Sequence record: PQ850601.1
Length of the DNA: 39,718 bases
Origin: Escherichia phage ElsieAttenhofer_Bas105
Direction: 5' to 3' (one strand)
This document shows positions 1,437 to 39,718 of the stretch, one piece after another. The notes under the pieces are model-generated. The model worked only from the letters and a program-made list of their open reading frames with translations. It searched no databases and was not told the DNA's origin. The translations under genes and the position numbers were made by a program. Position 1 is the stretch's first letter, and each line of letters opens with the position of its first letter.

Positions 1437-1607
1437 ATGATTAGAGTTAAATGCTTAAAGTCGGACTCAAATGGGATTCTTGAGGTGGGTTCAGTCTACT
1501 GGGTGGACTCGCTTGAAGACATTGACTCCTATGTGCATATTAGAGGAGGGCGATACATTGGTATGTTCCCCTCTAAGTGGTTTGAACCTAAGGAGGTGAA
1601 GCATTGA
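1437..1607 (+). CDS. Small hypothetical protein (56 aa)
   Basis: Own translation [56 protein letters not shown]; strong RBS AAGAGGGGGAAG upstream; stop overlaps the terminase start. Confidence 0.3.
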
Positions 1608-3367
1608 GTAAAGACTTAGTGGCGCGTCAGGCGCTAATGACTGCACGTATGAAGGCAGACTTCGTGTTCTTCCTGTTCGTCCTGTGGAAAGCTCTGTCAC
1701 TCCCAGTCCCGACTCGCTGTCAGATTGACATGGCGAAGAAACTATCGGCTGGGGACAACAGGCGCTTCATCCTACAGGCGTTCCGTGGTATAGGGAAGTC
1801 CTTTATTACGTGTGCCTTCGTTGTCTGGAAGCTATGGAACAACCCAGACTTGAAGTTCATGATTGTGTCGGCCTCAAAGGAACGAGCTGATGCTAACTCC
1901 ATCTTCATCAAGCGAATCATCGACCTCATGCCTCAGCTTCAGGAACTCAAACCTAAGCAGGGACAGCGAGATGCGGTTATCAGCTTCGACGTCGGACCAG
2001 CCAAGCCAGACCACTCACCTTCGGTTAAGTCCGTTGGTATCACTGGTCAGTTGACTGGTAGTCGTGCTGACATCCTGATTGCCGATGACGTGGAGGTTCC
2101 GAACAACTCAGCGACTCAGGCTGCCCGAGACCGTCTGTCAGAGCTTGTGAAGGAGTTCGACGCTATCCTGAAGCCGGGAGGTACAATCATCTATCTGGGT
2201 ACTCCTCAGAACGAGATGACCTTGTATCGTGAGCTGGAAGGCCGTGGGTACACCACTACTATCTGGCCTGCTCGTTATCCACGCGACAGGAAGGACTGGC
2301 AGTCTTACGGAGACCGTCTGGCTCCCATGCTTCAGGCAGAGCTTGAAGAGGACCCTGAGGCCTTCTATTGGCGTCCGACCGATGAAGTTCGATTCGACGA
2401 TACTGACCTGAAGGAACGTGAGCTGTCCTACGGTAAAGCTGGCTTCGCTCTACAGTTCATGCTTAACCCGAACCTAAGTGATGCTGAGAAGTACCCTCTG
2501 AAGCTCCGTGACCTTATCGTAGCCGACTTGGACCCAGCGTCCAGCCCAATGGTCTACCAATGGTTGCCTAACCCTCAGAACAAGCGTGAGGACGTTCCTA
2601 ACGTTGGACTCATGGGTGACTCATACCACACGTATCAAACTGTAGGTTCTGCCTTCAGTTCGTACACCCAGAAGATTTTGGTCATTGACCCTAGTGGTCG
2701 TGGTAAGGATGAAACTGGCTATGCGGTACTGTACCAGCTCAACGGCTACATCTTCGCTATGGAAGTTGGTGGTATGCGTGGTGGTTATGAAGACTCTACG
2801 CTGGAAGTACTAGCTAAGATTGGTCGTAAGTGGAAGGTCAACGAATACGTCATTGAGGGTAACTTCGGTGATGGTATGTACCTTGAGCTATTCAAGCCTG
2901 TAGCGGCCCGTATCCATCCTGCGGCTGTAACTGAAGTGAAGAGTAAGGGTCAGAAAGAACTCCGAATCTGTGACGTTCTGGAGCCTATCATGGGGTCTCA
3001 CCGACTTATCGTTAACGCTGCTGCTATCGTCCAAGACTACCAGTCGGCCTCTGATAAGGATGGTGTTCGTAACCCTATCTACTCTCTCTTCTACCAGATG
3101 ACACGTATCTCTCGTGAACGTGGAGCCTTGGCACACGATGACCGACTTGACGCGCTGGCTATAGGTGTACAGTTCTTCGTTGAGTCTATGGCTAAGGATG
3201 CCAACAAGGGCGAACGTGAAGTCACTGAGGAGTGGCTGGAGGAACAGATGGAGAACCCACGGAAAGGCTTCGAGTCCATCCACACTGAGTTCTGGGACAA
3301 TGGGGTCCGGGTAACTCACGATACGGACGACGAGCTGGGACTAGGGTCATACGTTACGTTCCACTAG
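1604..3367 (+). CDS. Terminase large subunit (T7 gene 19 homolog), TTG start
   Basis: 587-aa ORF colinear with remembered T7 gp19 ([19 protein letters not shown] Walker A-like, [24 protein letters not shown] nuclease); N-terminal alignment and TAAGGAGG 7 nt upstream support the TTG start at 1604. Confidence 0.95.
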
Positions 3368-3461
3368 CTGAATGAATAATTATAGGTGAAAGCTGCATGA
3401 ATACGCGGTTAGTAACCTATAGTTACTACCAGTCTAACCTACTGTTTTACAAGGAGTTTTG

Positions 3462-3484
3462 ACTTAACTATCACTATAGGGAAG
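3462..3484 (+). promoter_or_regulatory. Phage RNAP promoter (phiOR-like, near right genome end)
   Basis: TTAACTATCACTATAGGGAAG matches the 12-copy promoter consensus; predicted +1 G at 3479. Confidence 0.7.
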
Positions 3485-3664
3485 ACCCCCGGTTACTTAT
3501 AGTATTACTGTAGTGAATATACATATGCAGACTTTATGCAAGACCTTAGGAGGCAGACTCCGAGTTCTTACCTAAGGCTTGCACCGATGGAAGGAGGGTG
3601 ATATTAATCATAATCCCTCCAATACAGATAGTCACCGACCATAGATACAGGAGGTATGTAGCAT

Positions 3665-3823
3665 ATGGCAAAGACCAAAGCTGTACTTAAAGCTCTGGCG
3701 ACCAATCGAGCTACATACAGGTTTCTTGCTGCTGTTCTACTTGCTGCTGGCGTTACTGCTGGAAGTCAGTGGGTCGGGTGGGTCGAGACTCTCGTATGTT
3801 CTCTGGTCTCTCAGTGTAATTAA
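3665..3823 (+). CDS. Small hydrophobic ORF (52 aa), possible gene 19.5-like
   Basis: ATG with GGAGG 10 nt upstream, downstream of the phiOR-like promoter; translation MAKTKAVLKALATNRATYRFLAAVLLAAGVTAGSQWVGWVETLVCSLVSQCN; position only. Confidence 0.25.
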   Translation: MAKTKAVLKALATNRATYRFLAAVLLAAGVTAGSQWVGWVETLVCSLVSQCN

Positions 3824-3982
3824 CGCAATCATGGTAACAATCAACGAAAGTAAGACCTAAGGTCAGTTCATAGCTGACGCTACTCTACTGACCTTAGCTA
3901 CTGTAGTCAAGGACTTTAGGTAACACCTTAAGAGAAACTCACTTAGGGTCATCCTACTTATTGGTCTATCCTAGTGTCGCCT

Positions 3983-4022
3983 GACCTACGGTCCTTGACC
4001 TACAGTGGCTGTGACCTACAGT
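3983..4022. repeat. Three direct copies of TGACCTACRGT in the genome-end region
   Basis: TGACCTACGGT at 3983-3993, TGACCTACAGT at 3996-4006 and 4012-4022; related CTACCTACAGT copies near 4285-4318. Confidence 0.6.
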
Positions 4023-4108
4023 AGTGACGATGAGTTTTGGACCAAAAGTTTGAGACCACATCTCACAGTTCAAGAACCTCAAGTCTCCCCATAGGCCCTC
4101 TTTTAGTC

Positions 4109-4250
4109 CAGACCAATAGTCCCTACCCATAGACCTTTGGTCTACACCTCTAGTCTATCATAAGGTTGGACCGGTTGTCAAGACTTCAGGTCAACTATAG
4201 GTCTAGGCTATGGCTGGAGGTTGGGACGATAGGTAGGGACTATTGGTCTG
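4109..4250. repeat. Perfect 19-bp inverted repeat pair flanking a 104-bp spacer
   Basis: CAGACCAATAGTCCCTACC at 4109-4127; exact reverse complement GGTAGGGACTATTGGTCTG at 4232-4250. Confidence 0.7.
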
Positions 4251-4375
4251 CCTCTGAGTCCCTATCTGTATCAGACCATAAGTCACTACCGAGCTACCTA
4301 CAGTCTAACTACCTACAGTCATCGACCATCGGTAATGCCGCTACCTACTGTATAAATTACCATGATAAACAGTTG

Positions 4376-4404
4376 TTGACAGTAGGTCTAACTTTGGTTT
4401 AATA
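4376..4404 (+). promoter_or_regulatory. Candidate sigma70 early promoter (A1-like)
   Basis: TTGACA at 4376-4381, 17-bp spacer, weak -10 TTAATA/TTTAAT around 4398-4404; first of three TTGACA elements upstream of ocr. Confidence 0.35.
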
Positions 4405-4514
4405 GCTTCCGTCAACACGACACGGCAACAACCGGATAGTGAAGACGCCGGGTCATCCCGGTTAAGTAGACAGCCTGATAAGTCATACGAACAACAGGCA
4501 GATGACAGAAGTAG

Positions 4515-4543
4515 TTGACAAGATGTAAGACTTAAAGTAGTAT
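4515..4543 (+). promoter_or_regulatory. Candidate sigma70 early promoter (A2-like)
   Basis: TTGACA 4515-4520, 17-bp spacer, -10 TAGTAT 4538-4543. Confidence 0.5.
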
Positions 4544-4669
4544 GATTCACCAAGTAGTACAGCGAGCCGGAACTGATAAACTACATCGGCTATGCGGAGT
4601 GACCAGCGCGGATATCTGGTCTACTGAGTAAGACGGTAGGTTACTACAGAGAGCGAGCTAAGAAAGTGA

Positions 4670-4698
4670 TTGACAAGATGGCTTGACTGTAGTAACTT
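4670..4698 (+). promoter_or_regulatory. Candidate sigma70 early promoter (A3-like)
   Basis: TTGACA 4670-4675, 17-bp spacer, -10 TAACTT 4693-4698; shares TTGACAAGATG with the 4515 element. Confidence 0.4.
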
Positions 4699-4898
4699 AT
4701 ACGGCAAGCAAGATTAGTGAGTCCCAACACTGAAACGGGATAGCGCGGCGACGACAGCCAATGCGAATGCTCTTTAACAATCTGGATAAACTCTTAATGT
4801 GCGCCGATAGCGACTAACTACAGGGTCTTTGAGTCTACATCTGAAGGCCCTGACTGATAGTCACTAACATACACAAACAACTTTGAGAGGATATAATT

Positions 4899-5243
4899 AT
4901 GGAACGTAACGCTAACGCATACTATGAGCTGCTGGCTGCAACTGTTGAAGCATTTAACGAGCGCATTCAGTACGACGAAATAGCTGAAGGAGATGATTAT
5001 CACGATGCGCTGCATGAAGTCGTAGACGATATGGTCCCGCACTACTACCACGAGATCTTCACGGTGATGGCTGCTGATGGTATTGACCATGAGTTCGAAG
5101 ACTCTGGGCTGATGCCTGATACCAAGGACGTAACGCGTATACTACAGGCTCGCATTTATGAGGCACTGTATAACGATGTGTCTAATAGCTCTGAGGTGGT
5201 CTGGTTCGAGGCTGAAGAGAGCGACGAGGAGGCCTGCGAGTGA
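4899..5243 (+). CDS. ocr: Ocr-like DNA mimic anti-restriction protein (T7 gene 0.3 homolog)
   Basis: 114-aa highly acidic protein; [43 protein letters not shown] nearly identical to remembered T7 Ocr; first gene after the early promoters. Confidence 0.85.
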
Positions 5244-6276: not shown

Positions 6277-6299
6277 ACTTAACTATCACTATAGGACTC
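6277..6299 (+). promoter_or_regulatory. Phage RNAP promoter upstream of gene 1
   Basis: TTAACTATCACTATAGGACTC; predicted +1 at 6294. Confidence 0.65.
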
Positions 6300-6368: not shown

Positions 6369-9050
6369 ATGAGCGTCATCTCTATTGACAAACACGACTT
6401 CTCTGATGTGTCAAACGCCATTGAGCCGTTTAACCTGCTGGCCGACCACTACGGGCAAGACCTTGCAGTCAAACAGCTTCAGCTTGAGCATGAGGCATAC
6501 ACTGAAGGCGAGCGACGTTTCATCAAGAACCTTGAGCGCCAGACCGAGCGCGGGGAACTGGCAGACAATCAGGTCGCCAAGCCTTTGATGCAGACTCTGG
6601 TTCCTAAGATTGCGCAAGCCGTCAAGGAGTGGCACGAAGGTCCAGACGGGAAGCTGTCAACCTCTCGTCCTAGCGTAGCGTTCACCATGTTGAGTACTGA
6701 AGAGAAGGCCGTCAAGGATCGCTCTCTGCGTATCTCTTGCGAGTCTGCTGCGGTCATCATACTGAAGGTCATCCTCTCCAAGCTGGTCAAGCCTGAAGGG
6801 ATACCGATTACACCGATGGCCTCCGCGATAGGTCGCACACTTGAGGATGAAATCCGATTCGGTCGCATTCGTGACAAGGAGAAGGATCACTTCAAGAAGG
6901 CGATAGCAGATAACCTGAACAAGAGAGCCGGGGCATCATACAAGAAAGCCTACATGCAAGCGGTTGAGACCTCCATGTTGGAGCAAGGTCAACTGGAAGA
7001 TGCGTGGGGGACTTGGAGTCCGACCGAGGCTGTCCACGTTGGAATCAAGATGCTTGAGATTGTCATCCAGTCTACACAACTGGTCGAGCTTAAGCGTTAC
7101 GGTGCTGGCAATGCAGCGGCTGACGTTGAGATGGTCCACCTGTCAGACTTCTGGGTCAAGAAGATGGCACAACGCGGCTTCAGCCTTGCGGGTATCGCTC
7201 CAGTCTACCAACCTTGCGTCGTTCCGCCTAAGCCGTGGACTGGTGTCGTAGGCGGTGGGTACTGGGCCAAAGGTCGCAGACCACTCCCACTGATTCGCTT
7301 AGGGTCTAAGTCAGCGGTGGCACGTTACGAAGACGTGTACATGCCTGAAGTCTATGACGCTGTGAATATCATCCAGAATACGCCTTGGAAAGTTAACAAG
7401 AAGGTTCTGGAAGTGGTGAACATGGTCGAGAAGCTGAACAACACGCCTATTGATGACATACCTCAGATGGAACCGCTGAAGCCTGAGGACTATGCGGGTG
7501 AGACTGAAGAGGAACTCAAGGCATGGAAGAAGGCTGCTGCTGGTATCTACCGCCGAGAGAAGGCCAGGCAGTCACGTAGATTGTCACTGAGCTTTATCGT
7601 TAACCAAGCGAACAAGTTCTCTCAGTTCAAGGCCATCTGGTTCCCGTACAACATGGACTGGCGCGGTCGCGTCTACGCTGTGCCGATGTTCAACCCTCAG
7701 GGTAATGACATGCAAAAGGGTCTCCTGACTCTGGCAGTAGGTAAGCCTATTGGTGCTGATGGTTTCAAATGGCTGAAGGTCCACGGTGCAAACTGTGCGG
7801 GTATTGATAAAGTAACCTTCGAGGAGCGCATCAAGTGGGTGGAAGATAACCACGACAACATCATGGCTACCGCTAAGGCACCGATGGACAGCATTGAGTG
7901 GTGGGGCAAGTTAGACTCTCCGTTCTGCTTCCTAGCGTTCTGCTTCGAGTATGCTGGCGTAATGCATCACGGATTGTCTTACTCCTGCTCGCTGCCGATA
8001 GCATTCGATGGGTCCTGCTCTGGGATTCAGCACTTTAGCGCGATGCTTCGTGATCACATCGGTGGACATGCAGTAAACCTGACGCCTTCCGGTAAGGTAC
8101 AAGACATCTACCGCATCGTGTCTGACCGCATTGAGGAAGAGCTTAAAGTCCTGCTGGTTAACGGCACGGACAACGAGATGGTAACTCACGAGGACAAGAA
8201 AACTGGTGAGATTACCGAGCGTCTCAAACTGGGGACACGAGAACTGGCCCGTCAGTGGCTGACTTACGGTATGTCACGTAAGGTCACTAAGCGTTCAGTC
8301 ATGACTCTGGCCTACGGGTCGAAAGAGTACGGCTTCGCAGACCAAGTATACGAGGACATCGTGATGCCTGCGATTGACTCAGGGTCTGGCGCTATGTTCA
8401 CCGAACCAAGCCAAGCGTCCCGCTTCATGGCTAAGATGATTTGGGAAGCTGTGAGCGTGACCGTAGTTGCTGCGGTTGACGCGATGAAGTGGCTTCAAGG
8501 TGCTGCCAAGCTGCTGGCTGCTGAAGTGAAAGACAAGAAGACTGGAGAAATCCTGAAGCCTTGCCTTCCAGTACACTGGGTAACACCTGATGGGTTCCCG
8601 GTCTGGCAGGAATACCGCAAGAAGGATACCACTCGTCTGAACCTGATGTTCTTAGGGTCATTCAACCTTCAGCCTACCGTCAACAAAGGCACTAAGAAAG
8701 AGCTGGATAAGCACAAGCAGGAGTCAGGCATTAGCCCGAACTTCGTCCACTCACAAGATGGTAGCCACCTCCGCAAGACTGTAGTCCACACTCACCGCAA
8801 GTATGGCGTAATGTCATTCGCAGTGATTCACGATAGCTTCGGGACCATCCCGGCTGACGCTGAGTATCTGTTCCGTGGTGTCCGTGAGACGATGGTCGAG
8901 ACCTACCGCGACAACGATGTGCTGCTGGACTTCTACGAGCAGTTTGAATACCAGCTTCATGAGAGCCAGCGCGATAAGTTGCCAGAGCTTCCGAAGAAAG
9001 GTAAACTGAATATCGAAGACATCTTGTCTTCAGACTTTGCATTCGCTTAA
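6369..9050 (+). CDS. Single-subunit DNA-directed RNA polymerase (T7 gene 1 homolog)
   Basis: 893-aa ORF colinear with remembered T7 RNAP (FNPQGNDMxKGLLTLA, motif C VIHDSFGT, C-terminal SDFAFA); specificity-loop region reads GSFNLQPTVNKGTKKELDKHKQ. Confidence 0.97.
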   Translation: MSVISIDKHDFSDVSNAIEPFNLLADHYGQDLAVKQLQLEHEAYTEGERRFIKNLERQTERGELADNQVAKPLMQTLVPKIAQAVKEWHEGPDGKLSTSRPSVAFTMLSTEEKAVKDRSLRISCESAAVIILKVILSKLVKPEGIPITPMASAIGRTLEDEIRFGRIRDKEKDHFKKAIADNLNKRAGASYKKAYMQAVETSMLEQGQLEDAWGTWSPTEAVHVGIKMLEIVIQSTQLVELKRYGAGNAAADVEMVHLSDFWVKKMAQRGFSLAGIAPVYQPCVVPPKPWTGVVGGGYWAKGRRPLPLIRLGSKSAVARYEDVYMPEVYDAVNIIQNTPWKVNKKVLEVVNMVEKLNNTPIDDIPQMEPLKPEDYAGETEEELKAWKKAAAGIYRREKARQSRRLSLSFIVNQANKFSQFKAIWFPYNMDWRGRVYAVPMFNPQGNDMQKGLLTLAVGKPIGADGFKWLKVHGANCAGIDKVTFEERIKWVEDNHDNIMATAKAPMDSIEWWGKLDSPFCFLAFCFEYAGVMHHGLSYSCSLPIAFDGSCSGIQHFSAMLRDHIGGHAVNLTPSGKVQDIYRIVSDRIEEELKVLLVNGTDNEMVTHEDKKTGEITERLKLGTRELARQWLTYGMSRKVTKRSVMTLAYGSKEYGFADQVYEDIVMPAIDSGSGAMFTEPSQASRFMAKMIWEAVSVTVVAAVDAMKWLQGAAKLLAAEVKDKKTGEILKPCLPVHWVTPDGFPVWQEYRKKDTTRLNLMFLGSFNLQPTVNKGTKKELDKHKQESGISPNFVHSQDGSHLRKTVVHTHRKYGVMSFAVIHDSFGTIPADAEYLFRGVRETMVETYRDNDVLLDFYEQFEYQLHESQRDKLPELPKKGKLNIEDILSSDFAFA

Positions 9051-9278: not shown

Positions 9279-9356
9279 CAGACCTACAGTTACTGGCCCT
9301 GTGGCTTGGAGCACTCGCAATATTCACTTTAATCCAACGCAGAAGAGGTTAACCAT

Positions 9357-9827
9357 ATGTTCGGTAAGTCAAAACTTAAAGCACAAATCAAAGAGTTGAG
9401 CATGAAGGTGGCATACTTGGAGCGAGCCTTAACGGTACGGGATAAGGACAACGAGAGACTGAAGGTTAAACTTGCTGAATCAGAGCGTAAGCGCCTAACG
9501 CCTCCACCGGCTGTAACTGTCAAGCGTATGGTAGGCATCAAGTTCAAGGCACTGTTCAACGGTATGTACCAACCGACTGAGTTCAAGACCGGGCCGGGTA
9601 GCTGTGGGAAGAACGTTAAGCACTTCACCGTATCGAAGACTGAACGTACCATTACCATCCACCAGCACCACGTAGACGGGTCTCAGAAAGACTTTGAGTA
9701 CAGACTGAGCGCCATAGACGGACGCATCCAGTATGACTACGAGCGGGTTAAGGTCTACGGAGAAGAGGCCGAACGTGAGCGATATATTCAGGCATTCATG
9801 CGGGTAAGGCCGCGCATCATCTTCTAA
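9357..9827 (+). CDS. Hypothetical protein (156 aa) with N-terminal coiled-coil
   Basis: ORF between gene 1 and the phi1.1-like promoter; N-terminal heptad-rich charged segment; function unknown. Confidence 0.5.
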   Translation: MFGKSKLKAQIKELSMKVAYLERALTVRDKDNERLKVKLAESERKRLTPPPAVTVKRMVGIKFKALFNGMYQPTEFKTGPGSCGKNVKHFTVSKTERTITIHQHHVDGSQKDFEYRLSAIDGRIQYDYERVKVYGEEAERERYIQAFMRVRPRIIF

Positions 9828-9845
9828 ACTATCACTATAGGATTA
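9823..9845 (+). promoter_or_regulatory. Phage RNAP promoter (phi1.1-like)
   Basis: CTAAACTATCACTATAGGATT; predicted +1 at 9840. Confidence 0.7.
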
Positions 9846-11529: not shown

Positions 11530-11552
11530 CCTAAGCTATCACTATAGGACTA
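11530..11552 (+). promoter_or_regulatory. Phage RNAP promoter
   Basis: CCTAAGCTATCACTATAGGACTA; one mismatch to consensus; +1 at 11547. Confidence 0.6.
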
Positions 11553-12242: not shown

Positions 12243-12401
12243 ATGACTAAGGTTGAGAAGAAATACATCGTGGAGCTTGAGGGTCGCGTTCAGTCCTTCG
12301 AGGTTCCGGTATACGCAAAGTCTCTTGAAGAGGCTACCCTGAAGTCCCAAGAGTATGAGGATGCAGGGTTTGTGGTCGGACGGATTCGTCCTGAGACCTA
12401 A
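12243..12401 (+). CDS. Host RNA polymerase inhibitor (T7 gene 2 homolog)
   Basis: 52-aa ORF not in the supplied track; [52 protein letters not shown] shares SFEVP(I/V)YA...L(D/E)EA...AGF(E/V)V.R(I/V)RP with remembered T7 gp2. Confidence 0.7.
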
Positions 12402-12419
12402 ACTATCACTGTAGGACAG
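12397..12419 (+). promoter_or_regulatory. Phage RNAP promoter (phi2.5-like, variant)
   Basis: CTAAACTATCACTGTAGGACAG; one substitution in the TATA element; +1 at 12414. Confidence 0.55.
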
Positions 12420-12458: not shown

Positions 12459-13157
12459 ATGGCTAAAGAGCAACTGAAGACTTTCACCACTCCGGTAGCT
12501 GGTATCGTTGAGCCTTACGCATGGCTGAACAAAGCAGACACCAAGTTTAATGAGCGTGGTGAGCATAAGGTTAACCTGACTTTCAGTCTGGATGACCCGA
12601 AGGTCCGTAAGATGATTGATGTCTTACAGAAGATTCACGACGATGCGTATGCGAAAGCACTCGCAGACCACGAGAAGAACCCACCTCAGGTTCAGCGTGG
12701 CAAGAAGCCTATCGAGCCGCGTGAAGGCGATATGCCGTGGATTGAGAATGGGGACGGTACTGTTACCCTGAAGTTTAAATGCTTTGCGTCTTACCTTAAA
12801 GACGGCAAGTCCGAGCCTATCGTATTACGGTTCTACGACACCGATGCTAAACTCATCCGTGACGTCCCGAATATTGGCGCTGGGTCTAAGCTGAAGGTCA
12901 AGTTTAAAGTCCTGCCGTTCAAGTGGAACGCTGCGACTGGTGCAAGCGTTAAGCTCCAGCTTGAGTCCTGCCTTCTGGTAGAACTGAAGGAGTGGAAAGG
13001 TGATGGTTCTGGTGGCGATGGTGGATGGGGTGACGATGAAGACCTCGGCACTGGCTACAAAGCGTCAACCGATGGTGACTTCGGGTCTGATGACTTCGGT
13101 GACGATGGTTCCGAGGGTGGTGACGACTCCGGCTCTGGTGGCGATTACGACTTCTAA
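12459..13157 (+). CDS. Single-stranded DNA-binding protein (T7 gene 2.5 homolog)
   Basis: 232 aa; NPPxVxRGKKP, EGDMP, GSKLKVK, ASVKLQLES match remembered T7 gp2.5; acidic Gly/Asp-rich tail ending in DF. Confidence 0.93.
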   Translation: MAKEQLKTFTTPVAGIVEPYAWLNKADTKFNERGEHKVNLTFSLDDPKVRKMIDVLQKIHDDAYAKALADHEKNPPQVQRGKKPIEPREGDMPWIENGDGTVTLKFKCFASYLKDGKSEPIVLRFYDTDAKLIRDVPNIGAGSKLKVKFKVLPFKWNAATGASVKLQLESCLLVELKEWKGDGSGGDGGWGDDEDLGTGYKASTDGDFGSDDFGDDGSEGGDDSGSGGDYDF

Positions 13158-14571: not shown

Positions 14572-14787
14572 ATGATTAAACTTATCGAATTTCTTGGTCG
14601 TCTGGTGGTGCGTGGTTATCGTCGTGCTGCGGTTATGGAACGAAAGGTAGCAGAGAAGACTGCTGACGGTGCGGCTGATGCTGCTTCTCTGGCTGACAAG
14701 CTGACCATCGCGTCACTGGAAGCTGGCATGAAGGCACGTCAGGCTGACACCAAAGCTGACCAGTTGGCCCAGTTCTTCAAAGCCTAA
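14572..14787 (+). CDS. Hypothetical small protein (71 aa)
   Basis: ORF between lysozyme and primase/helicase; Ala-rich helical sequence; function unknown. Confidence 0.45.
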   Translation: MIKLIEFLGRLVVRGYRRAAVMERKVAEKTADGAADAASLADKLTIASLEAGMKARQADTKADQLAQFFKA

Positions 14788-14805
14788 ACTATCACCTTAG
14801 GGATG
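14783..14805 (+). promoter_or_regulatory. Candidate phage RNAP promoter upstream of gene 4 (divergent variant)
   Basis: CTAAACTATCACCTTAGGGATG; two mismatches in the -4/-2 region; +1 at 14800. Confidence 0.4.
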
Positions 14806-14852: not shown

Positions 14853-16598
<1,746 letters not shown>

Positions 16599-16599
<1 letters not shown>

Positions 16600-16763
16600 T
16601 GTTAAATAAACTTAAAGCTCGATACCATCGGTTCATGTACAAATGGTGGAGCGATGAAGCAACCTACCTGTCGAACATTCTGGGAGACCAGCGGTTCAAC
16701 TCTGAGGCATGGAAGAAAGCTAACCGGAAGTTCATATATCACTTCTTGCGTACAGACTACTAA
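16599..16763 (+). CDS. Small hypothetical protein (54 aa, GTG start)
   Basis: GTG with GGAGG 8 nt upstream; translation VLNKLKARYHRFMYKWWSDEATYLSNILGDQRFNSEAWKKANRKFIYHFLRTDY; lies between gene 4 and the next promoter. Confidence 0.35.
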
Positions 16764-16781
16764 GCTATCACTGTAGGATAG
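16759..16781 (+). promoter_or_regulatory. Phage RNAP promoter (variant)
   Basis: ACTAAGCTATCACTGTAGGATAG; +1 at 16776. Confidence 0.5.
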
Positions 16782-16834: not shown

Positions 16835-17236
16835 ATGATTGACTGTAGTGAGTGGACCGGGTGCCGAGATAAGTTCGGCTATGGCATGCGCAGGGTCAAT
16901 GGGAAAGTCCGTAGGCTACATCTCATAGCATATGAGGAAGCTAATGGTCCAATACCAAAGGGACTGGTTGTCCGTCATAAGTGTGACAACCCGTCATGTT
17001 ATAACCCTGATCACCTAGAGCTTGGGACACGAGCTGATAACGTTAAGGACCGGGATGTCCGTGGACGTATAGCAAAGGGTGTAAAAGTTGGATGTGCCAA
17101 GTTGACACCTGAAATTGTAGCAGAGGCTAAGAGATTGTACGCTTCTGGTGGATGGACTCACCGCTCTCTGGGGGAGAAATACGGCGTAGGGCATAGGACA
17201 ATAGCCAGAGCGATTGGAGGTGCTACATGGATTTAA
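16835..17236 (+). CDS. HNH homing endonuclease
   Basis: 133 aa; HNH core RHKCDNPSCYNPDHLELGTRADN with Cys-rich zinc ligands; free-standing between the gene 4 and gene 5 modules; 3' end overlaps the gene 5 start. Confidence 0.85.
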   Translation: MIDCSEWTGCRDKFGYGMRRVNGKVRRLHLIAYEEANGPIPKGLVVRHKCDNPSCYNPDHLELGTRADNVKDRDVRGRIAKGVKVGCAKLTPEIVAEAKRLYASGGWTHRSLGEKYGVGHRTIARAIGGATWI

Positions 17237-21205: not shown

Positions 21206-21228
21206 ACTAAACTATCACTATAGGGACT
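21206..21228 (+). promoter_or_regulatory. Phage RNAP promoter (phi6.5-like)
   Basis: CACTAAACTATCACTATAGGGAC; +1 at 21223. Confidence 0.75.
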
Positions 21229-22459: not shown

Positions 22460-24028
22460 ATGGCTGAACGTGAAGGGTTCGCTGCTGAAGGAGCCAAAGC
22501 GGTCTATGACCGACTGAAGAACGGTAGACAGCCATATGAGACACGCGCTCAGAACTGTGCTACTGTCACTATCCCGTCACTGTTTCCTAAGGAGTCCGAC
22601 AACTCATCTACTGAGTATACCACTCCGTGGCAATCCGTAGGTGCTCGCTGCTTGAACAACTTGGCTGCAAAGCTGATGTTGGCGTTATTCCCTCAGTCAC
22701 CGTGGATGCGACTGACAGTCTCCGAATATGAGGCAAAGACCTTGAGTCAGGACTCAGAGGCGGCTGCTCGCGTTGACGAAGGGCTGGCTATGGTCGAGCG
22801 TGTGTTGATGGCCTACATGGAGACTAACAGTTTCCGTGTCCCATTGTTCGAGGCTTTGAAGCAGCTTATCGTCTCAGGTAACTGTCTGCTCTACATCCCT
22901 CCTCCAGAACAAGGAACATACAGTCCGATGCGGATGTATCGCTTAGTGTCCTACGTTGTCCAACGTGATGCGTTCGGTAACATCTTGCAGATTGTGACTC
23001 TCGACAAGGTAGCGTTTAGTGCTCTACCGGAAGACGTGAAGTCTCAACTCAACGCAGACGACTATGAGCCTGACACCGAGCTGGAAGTATATACACACAT
23101 CTACCGTCAGGACGACGAGTATCTTCGATACGAGGAAGTGGAAGGCATTGAGGTGACAGGGACCGATGGTTCCTACCCGCTGACTGCATGTCCATACATC
23201 CCGGTACGAATGGTTCGACTGGATGGTGAAGACTATGGTCGTTCTTACTGCGAGGAGTATCTGGGAGACCTGAACTCGCTGGAGACGATTACAGAAGCTA
23301 TCACCAAAATGGCTAAGGTAGCCTCCAAGGTGGTGGGCCTCGTTAACCCGAACGGCATCACGCAACCTCGACGTCTGAACAAGGCGGCTACAGGTGAGTT
23401 CGTGGCTGGTCGCGTTGAGGACATCAACTTCCTGCAACTGACGAAAGGTCAGGACTTTACGATTGCCAAGTCGGTGGCTGACGCTATAGAGCAACGTTTA
23501 GGCTGGGCCTTCCTTCTTAACAGTGCTGTTCAGCGTAATGCCGAGCGTGTCACTGCTGAAGAGATTCGTTATGTTGCTGGCGAACTGGAGGCGACCTTAG
23601 GTGGCGTGTACTCAGTGCAGTCACAAGAGCTTCAGTTACCTATCGTCCGTGTGCTGATGAACCAGCTTCAGTCTGCTGGCATGATTCCTGACCTTCCGAA
23701 AGAAGCGGTAGAGCCTACGGTCTCCACTGGTCTTGAAGCGTTAGGTCGTGGTCAAGACTTAGAGAAGCTGACTCAGGCAGTCAACATGATGACCGGGCTA
23801 CAGCCTCTGCAACAGGACCCAGACATTAACTTGCCGACCCTTAAGCTACGACTACTGAATGCCTTAGGCATTGATACCGCCGGTCTACTACTGACTCAGG
23901 ACGAGAAGCTGCAACGTATGGCTGAACAATCCGCTCAAGGAGCTGTGGTCAACGGTGCGTCTGCTGCTGGTGCTAACATGGGCGCTGCTGTAGGTCAAGG
24001 AGCTGGTGAGGACATGGCTCAAGCCTAA
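22460..24028 (+). CDS. Head-to-tail connector / portal protein (T7 gene 8 homolog)
   Basis: 522 aa; long colinear identity blocks with remembered T7 gp8 (PYETRAQNCA, IPSLFPK, YRLVSYVVQRDAFGN, RMVRLDGEDYGRSY, ERVTAEEIRYVA). Confidence 0.97.
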   Translation: MAEREGFAAEGAKAVYDRLKNGRQPYETRAQNCATVTIPSLFPKESDNSSTEYTTPWQSVGARCLNNLAAKLMLALFPQSPWMRLTVSEYEAKTLSQDSEAAARVDEGLAMVERVLMAYMETNSFRVPLFEALKQLIVSGNCLLYIPPPEQGTYSPMRMYRLVSYVVQRDAFGNILQIVTLDKVAFSALPEDVKSQLNADDYEPDTELEVYTHIYRQDDEYLRYEEVEGIEVTGTDGSYPLTACPYIPVRMVRLDGEDYGRSYCEEYLGDLNSLETITEAITKMAKVASKVVGLVNPNGITQPRRLNKAATGEFVAGRVEDINFLQLTKGQDFTIAKSVADAIEQRLGWAFLLNSAVQRNAERVTAEEIRYVAGELEATLGGVYSVQSQELQLPIVRVLMNQLQSAGMIPDLPKEAVEPTVSTGLEALGRGQDLEKLTQAVNMMTGLQPLQQDPDINLPTLKLRLLNALGIDTAGLLLTQDEKLQRMAEQSAQGAVVNGASAAGANMGAAVGQGAGEDMAQA

Positions 24029-24046
24029 ACTATCACTATAGGAACA
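24024..24046 (+). promoter_or_regulatory. Phage RNAP promoter (phi9-like)
   Basis: AGCCTAAACTATCACTATAGGAAC; +1 at 24041. Confidence 0.75.
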
Positions 24047-25029: not shown

Positions 25030-25052
25030 ACTAAACTATCACTATAGGGAGA
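25030..25052 (+). promoter_or_regulatory. Phage RNAP promoter (phi10-like, strongest consensus match)
   Basis: ACTAAACTATCACTATAGGGAGA; +1 at 25047; shares CACTATAGGGAGA with the T7 class III promoters. Confidence 0.85.
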
Positions 25053-26342: not shown

Positions 26343-26346
26343 TTGA

Positions 26347-26387
26347 AACCCCTTGGGTGCCTTCGGGTGCTTGAGGGGTTTTTTTTG
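26347..26387 (+). terminator. Tphi-like intrinsic terminator downstream of the capsid gene
   Basis: AACCCCTTGGGTGCC-TTCG-GGTGCTTGAGGGGTT hairpin with G-U pairs followed by an 8-T run; same architecture as T7 Tphi. Confidence 0.8.
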
Positions 26388-29575: not shown

Positions 29576-29625
29576 AAGGGCCTATAGATTTACCTTAACT
29601 ATCACTATAGGGACTATAGGCCCTT
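29576..29625 (+). promoter_or_regulatory. 12-bp perfect inverted repeat enclosing the phi13-like promoter (candidate R13-type RNase III site)
   Basis: AAGGGCCTATAG (29576-29587) and its reverse complement CTATAGGCCCTT (29614-29625) flank the promoter core. Confidence 0.45.
29593..29615 (+). promoter_or_regulatory. Phage RNAP promoter (phi13-like)
   Basis: CCTTAACTATCACTATAGGGACT; +1 at 29610. Confidence 0.75.
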
Positions 29626-35900: not shown

Positions 35901-37374
35901 AGAGACCCTGATGAACCGCGCTGGTGATGACGGTAAGTTGAAGGATGAGGTGTCGACTCTGCGTGACACCCTTAAGATTCTGACTGGTCGCGCTCGACGT
36001 GATGGTGCTGACGATGCTGCGTTCGCTACCGTGATGCGTACCATGACTGACCTGTCCTTCTTCGCTAAGAATGCCTACATGGGTGTTCAGAACTTGACGG
36101 AGATTGGCGGTATGCTGGCCCGTGGTAACGTCCGTGCGATGTTGCATGGCATTCCAATATTCCATGACCTAGCCTTCCGTAACAAGAAGATGGGAGCCTC
36201 GGAGATTAAGGACCTGCACAATGTTATCTTCGGTAAGGAACTGGATGACTCAATCCGTCCGTCAAAACAGGATGTCATAGACCGCCTACGAGCTTACAGC
36301 GCCCTGAGCAAACCTACAGCTACGGCTTTAGGATCTGCCAAGTATTACACTGGTGAACTTGCAGTACGCTCTCCGTTCACTAAAGTCCTCAACGGTACGA
36401 CCAACTACCTGTTAGATGCTGGACGTCAAGGCTTCCTGTCTGACATCGTGGAGCATAGCCTGACTGGTAGTAAGCGTAAGTTCGATGACCGCTGGCTGAA
36501 GACCGCTGGTATCTCTGACGAGCAGTGGAAAGGCATTAAGTCCATAATCCGTGAGTCAGTGACTCGTGGTCCAGACGGGAAGTATACCATCAAGGATAAG
36601 AAGGCGTTCAGTCAGGACCCAAGGGCTATGGACCTGTGGCGTATGGGTGACACCATCGCTGACGAAACGTTACTCCGGCCTCATAAGCTGTCAAACATGG
36701 ACGCCAAGGCTTATGGCCCTCTCGCTAAGACTGTCCTTCAGTTTAAGAACTTCGTCATCAAGTCCATCAATGGGCGAACCATGCGAACCTTCTATAACGC
36801 CACGAAGAACAACCGAGCGATTGACGCTGCCCTGTCCACTGTGATGTCTATGGGTCTTGCTGGTATCTACTACATGGCTCAGGCGCACGTCAAGGCTTAC
36901 GCTATGCAGGATGGTCGAGACCGTGACTACCTCAAGCAAGCTCTGGACCCGACGATGATTGGATATGCTGCTCTATCACGTAGTTCACATCTTGGTGGAC
37001 CACTTGGGGTAGCTAACATTCTGGGTGGTATCGCTGGGTACGAGGACACTAAGATGCTCCGTTCGTCTATCCTCCCGCGTTCACCTACAGAGAAGCCTGA
37101 ACGGGCCATCGCGTATGGTGCAGCTACAAGTGACCCTGTGATGAATGTTGTTGGTAACTTCTTGGAGCAGGTTCCAGCTTTCGGATATGCTGCTAACGTT
37201 GGCGCTTCGGCTTACAACTTGGCTGGCTACCTCAAGGCTGATACTCGTGTCAACGAGCGTGACTACATGACCGGGATGTATAATACGTTCCGTGAACTGG
37301 TTCCGAACGACCCCATTACCCAGAAGCTGTTGCTTGGAACGTTTGAGGAGCAAGGCATCCACATCAAGGACTAA
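32986..37374 (+). CDS. Internal virion protein D (T7 gene 16 homolog) with non-canonical N-terminal domain and a coiled-coil insertion
   Basis: Start placed at ATG 32986 (AAGGAG RBS; the track ORF begins upstream at 32968 inside gene 15); central and C-terminal regions colinear with remembered T7 gp16 (SRPEVKARVD, VEKYANDKAYGISHSD, FLEARNLFDSD, YNRRVNGDIAIM, NGTTNYLLDA); N-terminal 140 aa lack the SLT motif; about 150 extra residues near nt 35090-35580. Confidence 0.92.
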   Translation: MATRGIRNNNPGNIRVSKDQWEGMTGDDGAFVTFDSPESGVRALGKNLLSYGRQGYDSIEKIINRWAPPNENDTQAYIDSVVAATGIPATQSLDLSNPDTLSSLAQAISFHETGSRYDPEVYQQGVARALNGISPKTPPVSANVFDALTEGLKSKPKVALGEKLPTAAGLNIEGQAPEAPNESFGEMFYKATGETMQEREDRSTWFGFGAATEAEVKNSMVGVAIRAGQTEDSLDVIGDVFNPTRWNNHKWTREELDQIRNAGVLPQYYGVITGGSPQNLTELINLALENQKLDQEKAKAGTGAQLAAGVIGAGVDPLTYVPIAGQVGKGGKLINKMFTVAAQSGALAGVSEVARTSVAGGDAHVAEAILGGALFGGGMTAIGDVIGKALGKSTNEFAGPATRLEARETARNVDGQDLSRLPIQEGEQTFSHQGVKFADVPNEPGSVRLEDGSILIGENPLNPKTRQVFDEVIEPERAAAGVNLGGLTEIGLKLLRSENPEIRGLAADLVRSPTGMQSGSSGKIGTTSSDVFERLRAVDHRFYNDIDDAVTQALKDPYFQTNFNRDNKSFRQDIYQRVALAIEDGSGNLKAELTPGELKVYDLLKNQFDAKREMMENPAMFGRADAQSIFPGSRFKGTYVPHVYSNQMKQLFINELGSPEALQEAIKKSWLASYASRPEVKARVDAMLAEQLQATQKAAGKTSGQTTSQRASVSEASYQMKLDDAATRAADNVAELNDVLTNAEKRVADHEKKLQNSKDRLASHEAKLKELEEQLEAKPNSKTLPVKIESRKRMIETQQSHVRVNTERLDYANAQAAKVRDRIAKATSEYEAVAAAAKGTKPVVDNDTAPTGEATSGAEPNVAPEVTMAMVEKYANDKAYGISHSDVFERSSVMEENINGLVGLENNNFLEARNLFDSDMEIVLPNGQPFSVNSLREWDMDKIIPAYNRRVNGDIAIMAGTGKTTKEVKDAVETLMNRAGDDGKLKDEVSTLRDTLKILTGRARRDGADDAAFATVMRTMTDLSFFAKNAYMGVQNLTEIGGMLARGNVRAMLHGIPIFHDLAFRNKKMGASEIKDLHNVIFGKELDDSIRPSKQDVIDRLRAYSALSKPTATALGSAKYYTGELAVRSPFTKVLNGTTNYLLDAGRQGFLSDIVEHSLTGSKRKFDDRWLKTAGISDEQWKGIKSIIRESVTRGPDGKYTIKDKKAFSQDPRAMDLWRMGDTIADETLLRPHKLSNMDAKAYGPLAKTVLQFKNFVIKSINGRTMRTFYNATKNNRAIDAALSTVMSMGLAGIYYMAQAHVKAYAMQDGRDRDYLKQALDPTMIGYAALSRSSHLGGPLGVANILGGIAGYEDTKMLRSSILPRSPTEKPERAIAYGAATSDPVMNVVGNFLEQVPAFGYAANVGASAYNLAGYLKADTRVNERDYMTGMYNTFRELVPNDPITQKLLLGTFEEQGIHIKD

Positions 37375-37392
37375 ACTATCACTATAGGAAAC
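37370..37392 (+). promoter_or_regulatory. Phage RNAP promoter (phi17-like)
   Basis: ACTAAACTATCACTATAGGAAAC; +1 at 37387. Confidence 0.75.
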
Positions 37393-39625: not shown

Positions 39626-39718
39626 TCGCAGTTTGTGGAGGTAGAGGCTAACTACACGCTGACCAACGTATGGTAACAACTTTGGGTCACGGACGACCCG
39701 CTTTAAACTGGAGGTTTT

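Follow-up and report, generated by a model that had tools for sequence, protein, structure and literature searches.

The stretch of DNA analysed here, referred to below as the window, comprises 39,718 nucleotides of Escherichia phage ElsieAttenhofer_Bas105 (PQ850601.1) and carries gene 1, encoding a T7-like single-subunit RNA polymerase (RNAP), and twelve short sites resembling phage promoters. The features are detailed in Table 1. By its sequence, the window represents the whole genome, in circular permutation, of a K1F-like phage of the genus Kayfunavirus, a relative of T7. Membership in this genus is indicated by genome-wide nucleotide similarity and synteny with the K1F-group phages. The blastn alignment to K1F was collinear, with 90–96% identity over most of the genome, and a 25-kb stretch showed 92–95% identity at 93–97% coverage to ST31, BDX03P1, CLB_P1, and other Kayfunavirus genomes. 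The nucleotide identity of the RNAP gene was 96.8% to Escherichia phage Vec13 and about 95–96% to EcoDS1 and other Kayfunavirus records, and direct blastn of the K1F gene 1 region gave 95.0%. The window differs from K1F in the tailspike, which is a depolymerase instead of the K1F endosialidase, in gene 5, which lacks the HNH/intein insertion of K1F, and in the permutation of the assembly.

Table 1. Coordinates of gene 1, its DNA-reading loops, the base-contact codons and the twelve promoter sites in the window.
Feature	Sequence	Position	Strand	+1	Basis or remarks
Gene 1, T7-like single-subunit RNA polymerase, 893 aa		6369..9050	+		Pfam, phmmer, alignments
AT-rich recognition loop equivalent	DGKLSTSRPSV	6645..6677	+		Window aa 93–103; T7 93–101 KAKRGKRPT
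Specificity loop coding region	KDTTRLNLMFLGSFNLQPTVNKGTKKELDKHKQ	8622..8720	+		Window aa 752–784 = T7 742–774
Base-contact codon R756 (T7 R746)		8634–8636	+		Alignment, codon check
Base-contact codon N758 (T7 N748)		8640–8642	+		Alignment, codon check
Base-contact codon N766 (T7 R756)		8664–8666	+		Alignment, codon check
Base-contact codon Q768 (T7 Q758)		8670–8672	+		Alignment, codon check
Promoter	ACTTAACTATCACTATAGGGAAG (-17..+6)	3462..3484	+	3479	phiOR-like, after gene 19; syntenic with K1F 38856
Promoter	ACTTAACTATCACTATAGGACTC	6277..6299	+	6294	75 nt 5' of gene 1 ATG; syntenic with K1F 2478, Ro103C3lw 2479
Promoter	TCTAAACTATCACTATAGGATTA	9823..9845	+	9840	phi1.1-like; syntenic with K1F 5556
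Promoter	CCTAAGCTATCACTATAGGACTA	11530..11552	+	11547	3' of ligase gene; syntenic with K1F 7187
Promoter	CCTAAACTATCACTGTAGGACAG	12397..12419	+	12414	phi2.5-like; syntenic with K1F 8503
Promoter	CCTAAACTATCACCTTAGGGATG	14783..14805	+	14800	5' of gene 4; weakest match; K1F 10870 syntenic, identical variant
Promoter	ACTAAGCTATCACTGTAGGATAG	16759..16781	+	16776	5' of gene 5 region; shared with BDX03P1, EcL30g, Ro103C3lw
Promoter	ACTAAACTATCACTATAGGGACT	21206..21228	+	21223	phi6.5-like; syntenic with K1F 17181
Promoter	CCTAAACTATCACTATAGGAACA	24024..24046	+	24041	phi9-like; syntenic with K1F 20002
Promoter	ACTAAACTATCACTATAGGGAGA	25030..25052	+	25047	phi10-like, 5' of capsid gene; syntenic with K1F 21001
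Promoter	CCTTAACTATCACTATAGGGACT	29593..29615	+	29610	phi13-like; syntenic with K1F 25325
Promoter	ACTAAACTATCACTATAGGAAAC	37370..37392	+	37387	phi17-like, 5' of tailspike gene; syntenic with K1F 32601

The product of gene 1 matched the Pfam families RNA_pol (PF00940, 1.9e-106) and RPOL_N (PF14700, 7.4e-15), both above the curated cut-offs. With phmmer, its residues 1–893 were matched end to end by residues 1–883 of the T7 RNAP structures 1cez and 1aro (E=0); among solved structures, this search returned none nearer than T7 RNAP. The two proteins were identical at 559 of 878 positions (64%). The counterparts of the T7 catalytic and NTP-binding residues D537, K631, Y639, H784, and D812 were identical in the aligned RNAPs of the window, K1F, T3, K11, and SP6.

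Within the specificity loop region, positions 8637–8720 are in frame with gene 1 and encode LNLMFLGSFNLQPTVNKGTKKELDKHKQ. The loop reported for this polymerase by a previous sequence-only reading is contained in that translation, and the T7 loop that it gave for comparison, GQFRLQPTINTNKDSEIDAHKQ, is correct. The same reading had claimed an altered specificity loop. Residues R746, N748, R756, and Q758 of T7 RNAP are given as base-contact residues in PMC11880802. In our alignment the alteration was borne out at R756, which is replaced by N766, but the other three residues are kept. Besides R756N, the loop shows about twelve other changes with respect to T7 RNAP, including Q754S, T763K, N764G, K765T, D766K, S767K, and A771K. 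The 85-aa segment holding this loop was at least 99% identical in 125 phage records. The AT-rich recognition loop, which had been missed previously, is lengthened by an insertion of two residues relative to T7 and has lost the RGK motif, and a further insertion of nine residues is located just after it.

Searching the whole window for AACTATCACTATAGG with up to three mismatches, twelve sites were obtained, every one of them on the + strand and eight perfect. The expectation from shuffled windows was 0.88, and none of 100 shuffles attained twelve, in agreement with the twelve promoter-like sites previously claimed. All are intergenic. The next ORF starts 29–259 nt downstream of eleven of them, the twelfth being the phiOR-like site. 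The layout is that of T7, with sites at the places of T7 phi1.1, 2.5, 6.5, 9, 10, 13, 17, and OR, one to one. No T7-, K11-, or SP6-type promoters were detected in the window, nor any of T3 type, since the apparent T3 matches were the K1F-type sites themselves with three mismatches; the K1F-type promoter was absent from the T7 genome. Another kind of dispersed repeat, such as recombination or packaging signals, was also considered for these repeated 15–23-mers. Nothing specific spoke for it, and strand, placement, and literature led us to reject it as practically void of probability: the repeats keep strictly to one strand, all fall between genes, and correspond one to one with the T7 promoter places, positions -8..+2 are identical to the T7 promoter core, and the same sequence drives transcription by the Ro45lw RNAP in vitro (PMC12272871).

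With +1 at the first G, positions -12..-8 read ACTAT in ten of the twelve sites and GCTAT in two, followed by CACTATAGG; in T7 they read CGACT. The motif AACTA, which had been set against CGACT at -12..-8, actually occupies -13..-9, so the difference from T7 is real but the register was off by one. T7 RNAP belongs to the same fold family and has the same 23-bp promoter architecture, and its promoter is identical to those of the window at -13 and from -8 to +2, thus sharing A-13 and T-8. The true differences lie at -12 to -9 and, overlooked before, at -17 to -14. The claimed match to T7 from -7 to +6 holds for -8 to +2, but not for +3..+6, where the information is low (0.9–0.1 bits) and positions are not conserved; the GGGAGA start is complete only at 25030–25052. 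C-11, T-10, A-9, and T-8 are invariant across the twelve promoters. The K11 promoter differs from that of the window at 7 of 17 positions over -17..-1 and at 9 of 23 over -17..+6.

The gp1 of K1F (NC_007456) is identical to the window RNAP at 885 of 893 residues. The eight substitutions are all outside the DNA-reading loops, and both the specificity loop and the AT-rich loop are 100% identical. K1F has the consensus of the window at 11 syntenic sites, in the same order, including the variant sites AGCTATCACTATAGG, AACTATCACTGTAGG, and AACTATCACCTTAGG; the twelfth (window 16759–16781) was lost from K1F via a 12-bp deletion. The loop of BDX03P1 is identical to that of the window, and that of EcL30g differs at two non-contact positions and has the same contact residues; both phages show the same promoter consensus. 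With the K1F loop sequence, N758, N766, and Q768 at T7 positions 748, 756, and 758, and 11 of 12 promoters paired, in the same order, with syntenic K1F sites, the window RNAP and its twelve predicted promoters are to be classified as a K1F-type pair, which is already known. The K1F-type promoter and loop have reportedly been in the literature since the description of the K1F genome.

On the basis of these data, we are highly confident that in this K1F-like genome the gene 1 RNAP serves the twelve promoters with the known K1F-type, loop-dependent specificity. The enzyme, whose activity we infer, would transcribe the middle and late genes from the twelve promoters, which are 23 bp long and share the consensus (A/C)CT(A/T)AACTATCACTATAGG(A/G), starting at the first G. 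By analogy with the T7 enzyme, TATA at -4..-1 would be melted, the C-terminal specificity loop would read -12..-5 in the major groove, and the N-terminal AT-rich recognition loop would bind -17..-13. The residues corresponding to T7 R746 and Q758, expected to read -7 and -8, are kept, and these bases are unchanged. T7 R756, the residue that reads -9/-10, is replaced by Asn, and at these positions the window promoters carry T-10 A-9 where T7 carries A-10 C-9; R756N and the other loop substitutions would together confer the K1F-type specificity. The residue–base specificity network of PMC11880802 includes a K1F node and couples residue 748 with -11/-10, 756 with -10/-9, 757/758 with -8, and 746 with -7. 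However, N748 is kept even though -11/-10 differ (GA to CT), and thus reading of one base by one residue does not explain everything. For the window enzyme, the individual contacts proposed are an extrapolation based on the T7 complex and on this coupling analysis.

The RNAP of phage Ro45lw (also written 'Ro45Iw') has been characterized in vitro, with the minimal promoter ACTTAACTATCACTATAGGGA and G as +1 (PMC12272871). Its gp1 is 94% identical to the window RNAP. Of the 51 substitutions between them, M to L and T to S fall within the loop, and the R/N/N/Q contact residues are the same in both. ACTTAACTATCACTATAGGGA is identical to the window promoter at 3462–3484 from -17 to +3, only +4 being different, to that at 6277–6299 through +2, and likewise to that at 29593–29615 except at -17. 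Initiation at the +1 G of the window promoters is predicted from this 94%-identical enzyme.

A different class of pair was found within the same genus. Ro103C3lw is a congener whose RNAP is 88% identical to that of the window, with loop RLDLMFLGTFRLQ and promoters TTAAACCCTCACTATAGG. Together with 02_vB_Eclo_IJM it represents a T3-like specificity class inside Kayfunavirus; for 02_vB_Eclo_IJM, only the loop peptide and the promoter sites were used, as its annotation is split into about 130 short CDS, probably by frameshift errors. The promoters of T3 and of this class share A-12, C-11, and T-8 with those of the window. On the other hand, the class has D748/R756, as in T3, reads C-10 C-9, and shows T/A at -16, whereas the window has N/N, T-10 A-9, and C-16. 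Over 12 orthologous promoters of the window and Ro103C3lw, -16, -10, and -9 differ in 12/12, and -15, -11, -8..-5, -1, +1, and +2 agree in 12/12. From the window to the Ro103C3lw RNAP, the specificity loop shows an N-to-D and an N-to-R change and the AT-rich loop an indel, its sequence in the Ro103C3lw class being TQGS--TRGKPQV, without the insertion of the window. This co-variation, observed between sister lineages in nature, supports the published residue–base rules. The variant specificity-loop segment and the variant AT-rich-loop segment were found in 14 records each; these equal counts, from separate tallies, are consistent with complete linkage of both loop variants.

Engineered polymerases carrying the K1F loop provide functional data. 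According to PMC3458549, T7 RNAP with the K1F loop (swap of T7 Q744–I761) transcribes from a promoter in which -12..-7 were replaced by the K1F subfamily consensus, and this T7(K1F) graft is orthogonal to the T7, T3, and N4 variants. T7(K1F) and its split counterpart K1FR have a loop identical to that of the window, read the K1F -12..-7 consensus, and are selective against T7 and T3 promoters. They are, however, chimeras with the T7 scaffold and the T7 N-terminal domain, in which the promoter was exchanged at -12..-7 only; in the window enzyme the AT-rich loop is not that of T7 either, and the promoters natural to this enzyme also differ at -17..-14. In the split T7 scaffold, the K1F graft additionally required M750R to work well (PMC3458549; PMC4299498), indicating that loop context matters.

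The sequence-only reading had predicted a pair orthogonal to T7, T3, SP6, and K11 from the co-variation of promoter and loop. The published orthogonality concerns a grafted K1F loop, compared with T7, T3, and a Vibrio N4 loop, and it is relative and incomplete. The pair could be distinct from T7 in consensus without being truly orthogonal, with substantial cross-talk with T7-type or especially T3-type promoters. At three of the four contact positions the residue is that of T7, -16, -10, and -9 are the only positions separating the promoters from those of the T3-like class of Ro103C3lw, the K1FR fragment reached about 4% of the cognate fragment on PT7 (260 and 6326 units) and 43 units on PT3, compared with 2043 (PMC4299498 supplement), and orthogonality of only limited extent is attributed to the Temme set in PMC11880802. 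Nevertheless, we regard such cross-talk as unlikely: on PK1FR, the K1FR fragment reached 2448 units, and the T7 and T3 fragments 19 and 6.7, with a background of 5 (PMC4299498 supplement); each RNAP is called highly orthogonal in PMC3458549; and the natural AT-rich loop and the differences at -17..-14 should increase discrimination. The K1F graft, the K1FR cross-talk values, and the Ro103C3lw co-variation uphold the core idea that the pair differs from T7 in specificity and that the specificity loop is largely responsible. The co-variation argument as first formulated, on the contrary, had a shifted register, counted contact residues of which three are unchanged, and left aside the -17..-14 changes and the altered AT-rich loop.

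The main determinant could alternatively be the N-terminal AT-rich recognition loop, reading C-16 and T-15, and not the C-terminal loop. These two bases are invariant in 12/12 window promoters (about 2.1 bits each), at positions where T7 has A-16 A-15, the loop is two residues longer and lacks the RGK of T7, and -16 differs in 12/12 from Ro103C3lw, whose loop is without the insertion. Nonetheless, this seems very improbable: swapping Q744–I761 and -12..-7 alone sufficed for an active and selective pair in a T7 scaffold (PMC3458549), and PMC11880802 reports strong coupling for the specificity-loop region only. Moreover, the change at -16 is fully linked to those at -10/-9 and in the specificity loop in the genomes examined, and so represents a single evolutionary event. 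With the specificity loop as the principal determinant, a second one may tentatively be proposed for natural K1F-type RNAPs, in which the lengthened AT-rich loop would read C-16; we hold this to be conceivable, though somewhat doubtful. Equally tentative is the suggestion that loop-graft engineering and the published coupling analyses missed it.

As a discovery, the window carries little weight, being one more Kayfunavirus genome with a standard K1F-type pair: synthetic biology has employed this promoter and loop as an orthogonal part since 2012, and the Ro45lw polymerase, a natural enzyme nearly identical to that of the window, was characterized in 2025. Its value, although modest, lies in the clean natural experiment formed with Ro103C3lw, in which three positions flip across twelve orthologous promoters and which suggests a candidate contributor in -16 and the N-terminal loop. 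Should the enzyme indeed read -16, greater orthogonality than that of the T7(K1F) chimeras would be expected of native K1F-type enzymes, and engineering would gain a second handle in the N-terminal loop. Within one genus, Kayfunavirus, both reading heads and positions -16, -10, and -9 have switched together at all 12 promoters. This switch separates the K1F class from the T3-like one of Ro103C3lw.

The polymerase/promoter pair of the window is a known one, that of the Kayfunavirus K1F (NC_007456); in near-identical relatives it has been engineered and its biochemistry characterised. The K1F gene 1 region was 95.0% identical to the window by direct blastn; nucleotide identity of gene 1 was 96.8% to Escherichia phage Vec13 and 95-96% to EcoDS1, CLB_P1, SH3 and dozens of further Kayfunavirus records, and a 25-kb stretch matched ST31, BDX03P1, CLB_P1 and others with 92-95% identity and 93-97% coverage. 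By blastn, the window and K1F were collinear and circularly permuted. The window opens where genes 17 and 18 meet (17.5/18 region) with gene 17.5, for the holin, and is a permutation of the standard T7-type map.

Features of the window and polymerase residues equivalent to T7 contacts
Feature	Position	Strand	Remark
Large terminase gene	1604-3367
Collapsed direct terminal repeat	~4061-4260		matches both K1F ends (blastn)
Candidate sigma-70 sites	4515-4543 and 4870-4897		near left end
Gene 1	6369-9050	+	893-aa ORF, downstream of terminal repeat
Gene 5	17227-19395		uninterrupted
+1 positions of the 12 promoters	3479, 6294, 9840, 11547, 12414, 14800, 16776, 21223, 24041, 25047, 29610, 37387	+
T7 R746	R756		unchanged
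T7 N748	N758		unchanged
T7 R756	N766		Arg to Asn
T7 Q758	Q768		unchanged

The gene 1 product contained the Pfam RNA_pol and RPOL_N domains, matched T7 RNA polymerase structures from end to end and kept all of T7 D537, K631, Y639, H784 and D812. When aligned with the T7, K1F, T3, K11 and SP6 polymerases, it was 64% identical to T7 and shared 885 of 893 residues with K1F gp1, the eight differences from the latter all lying outside the DNA-reading elements. The segment 8637-8720 is in frame with this ORF and translates as LNLMFLGSFNLQPTVNKGTKKELDKHKQ, which contains the loop quoted in a sequence-only reading of this DNA; the T7 loop given there was also correct. That reading had proposed an altered specificity loop; in the alignment, one of the four hydrogen-bonding positions differs from T7 and the other three are kept. 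Compared with T7, the loop also carries P742K, I743D, Q744T, Q754S, I761V, T763K, N764G, K765T, D766K, S767K, I769L and A771K. The specificity loop was 100% identical to that of K1F; an 85-aa segment including it was found in 125 phage records at 99% identity or more, and in 205 at 95% or more. The N-terminal AT-rich recognition loop, a difference absent from the sequence-only reading, is DGKLSTSRPSV, corresponding to T7 93-101 (KAKRGKRPT); it is two residues longer than in T7, lacks RGK and is soon followed by an insertion of 9 residues.

With +1 as the first G after TATA, AACTATCACTATAGG (up to three mismatches) matched the window at the twelve sites previously claimed, all on the + strand and eight of them perfect, against a mean of 0.88 expected; none of 100 dinucleotide-preserving shuffles reached 12. 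All +1 sites lie between ORFs. In 11 cases the next gene begins 29-259 nt downstream; the twelfth site comes behind the gene for the large terminase, as phiOR does in T7. The 12-site matrix consensus was (A/C)CT(A/T)AACTATCACTATAGG(A/G), invariant at -16, -15, -13, -11 to -5 and -2 to +2, with T at -4 in 11/12 sites and little information past +3. Compared with a consensus built from 17 annotated T7 promoters, it differs at -17, -16, -15, -14, -12, -11, -10 and -9, while -13 and the stretch -8 to +2 are the same. The difference formerly given as AACTA versus CGACT is real but was one base out of register: at -12 to -8 the window has ACTAT and T7 has CGACT, with -8 unchanged. Likewise, the match claimed from -7 to +6 holds through +2 and was overstated downstream, the GGGAGA start occurring only at the phi10-like site (25030-25052). 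No T7-, K11- or SP6-type promoters were found in the window, and no K1F-type site in T7.

The phage-type promoter at 6277-6299 has its start (6294) 75 nt before the ATG of gene 1 and is also found in K1F (2478) and in the sister Kayfunavirus Ro103C3lw (2479), whereas T7 has no phage promoter there. With this promoter immediately before its gene, the polymerase could drive its own transcription, in positive feedback. A separate motif, GACTCAAGGTC (up to one mismatch), occurred 14 times against 1.08 expected, at window 462, 6295, 9846, 9859, 16781, 25076 and eight more positions; since several of these follow phage promoter starts at a distance of 1-30 nt, the motif could serve as a conserved leader or as an element for RNase III or primase.

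K1F carries the same promoter motif at 11 syntenic sites, the same variant sites included. It lacks the promoter at 16759-16781 because of a 12-bp deletion inside the site (~12845-12860 in K1F), with conserved flanks; the window, BDX03P1, EcL30g and Ro103C3lw all have this promoter intact. BDX03P1 and EcL30g have the same loop contact residues and promoter consensus as the window, the loop being identical in the former and different at two other positions in the latter. The natural polymerase of Kayfunavirus Ro45lw has been purified, its +1 mapped to G and its minimal promoter defined as ACTTAACTATCACTATAGGGA (Takatsuki et al. 2025, PMC12272871). The Ro45lw and window enzymes are 94% identical and share the R/N/N/Q residues. 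The same repeats, CTWAACTATCACTATAGG, were taken as promoters in a genome note of 2026 on a further Kayfunavirus (PMC13298934). For practical purposes, a function of the repeats other than as promoters can be dismissed.

Phage polymerase beta-hairpins and their promoters were mined by Temme et al. 2012 (PMC3458549), where T7 Q744-I761 was swapped for the K1F loop and promoter positions -12 to -7 for the K1F consensus; this chimera, T7(K1F), was functional (17-fold induction) and, according to the authors, orthogonal to T7, T7(T3) and T7(N4). K1FR is T7(K1F) improved by M750R (Segall-Shapiro et al. 2014, PMC4299498). In substance the prediction of a pair distinct from T7 was right, but the orthogonality, predicted also for T3, SP6 and K11, is relative, not absolute, towards T7 and T3. 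In the split-polymerase source data of PMC4299498 (promoter activity units), PK1FR gave 2448 with the K1FR fragment, 19 with T7, 6.7 with T3 and 5 with no fragment; the corresponding values were 260, 6326, 53 and 6.9 on PT7, and 43, 9.2, 2043 and 3.1 on PT3. Zhu et al. 2025 (PMC11880802) likewise regard the orthogonality of the Temme set as limited; K1F is a named cluster in their residue-base specificity network. Nothing was found in the literature on SP6 or K11 cross-talk with a K1F-type pair.

By homology with T7, the polymerase would be synthesised early in infection, under host-type promoters close to the left end, and would then bind each 23-bp promoter, of which -4 to +6 would be the unwinding and initiation region. 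Published couplings join residue 746 with -7, 748 with -11/-10, 756 with -10/-9 and 757/758 with -8 (PMC11880802). The kept R756 and Q768 would match the kept C-7 and T-8, and N766 the C-to-A change at -9 and the A-to-T change at -10. Loop context must contribute too, since N758 is kept though -11/-10 changed.

Ro103C3lw (MN067430) came up in a search for N-terminal loop variants. Its polymerase (2561-5227), 88% identical to that of the window, has the loop RLDLMFLGTFRLQ, whose D and R are those of T3, and an AT-rich loop (TQGS--TRGKPQV) without the 2-aa insertion; its promoters are TTAAACCCTCACTATAGG. Enterobacter phage 02_vB_Eclo_IJM belongs to the same specificity class. Kayfunavirus comprises two polymerase/promoter classes, a K1F type (N/N loop, CT(A/T)AACTATCACTATAGG) and a T3-like type (D/R loop, TTAAACCCTCACTATAGG). 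When the 12 orthologous promoter regions of the window and Ro103C3lw were aligned, all 12 pairs differed at -16, -10 and -9 and all 12 agreed at -15, -11, -8 to -5, -1, +1 and +2, with ordinary divergence in the flanks. This pattern fits the published rules linking 748/756 with -10/-9, and the co-variation argued earlier is supported in corrected form, its register and contact details having been imprecise. Position -16 co-varies with the AT-rich loop, as a single linked event inseparable in these data from the specificity-loop change. That the N-terminal loop is the dominant determinant is unlikely, because grafting the specificity loop alone works in the T7 scaffold (PMC3458549); the lengthened AT-rich loop may read -16 as a second determinant.

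Elsewhere in the window, the ORF at 9357-9827 carries a T3 gene 1.05 domain (PF25755, 1.4e-24), and 9355-9823 has no K1F counterpart by blastn. K1F gene 5 (DNA polymerase) is split by an HNH-endonuclease/intein-like insertion (14935-15535), absent from the window at 19238-19240. In gene 16 (32986-37374), ~555 bp (35040-35594) are without K1F match, and gp16 is therefore ~167 aa longer than in K1F; this region, translated in the frame of position 34900 and not in the gene 16 frame, gave no Pfam match. The tailspike (37439-39625, 728 aa) joins a T7 tail-fibre N-terminal adaptor to a pectate-lyase-like depolymerase, not the K1F endosialidase. Its receptor-binding part (~37970-39638) is 94.9% identical in nucleotides to a tail fibre gene of the unrelated Escherichia phage KarinMuster_Bas82 (58.5 kb), which indicates an exchange of modules. 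At the position of the T7 T-phi terminator, 134 nt past the capsid gene, there is a strong stem-loop of 17 bp with a T-run behind it (26345-26382).
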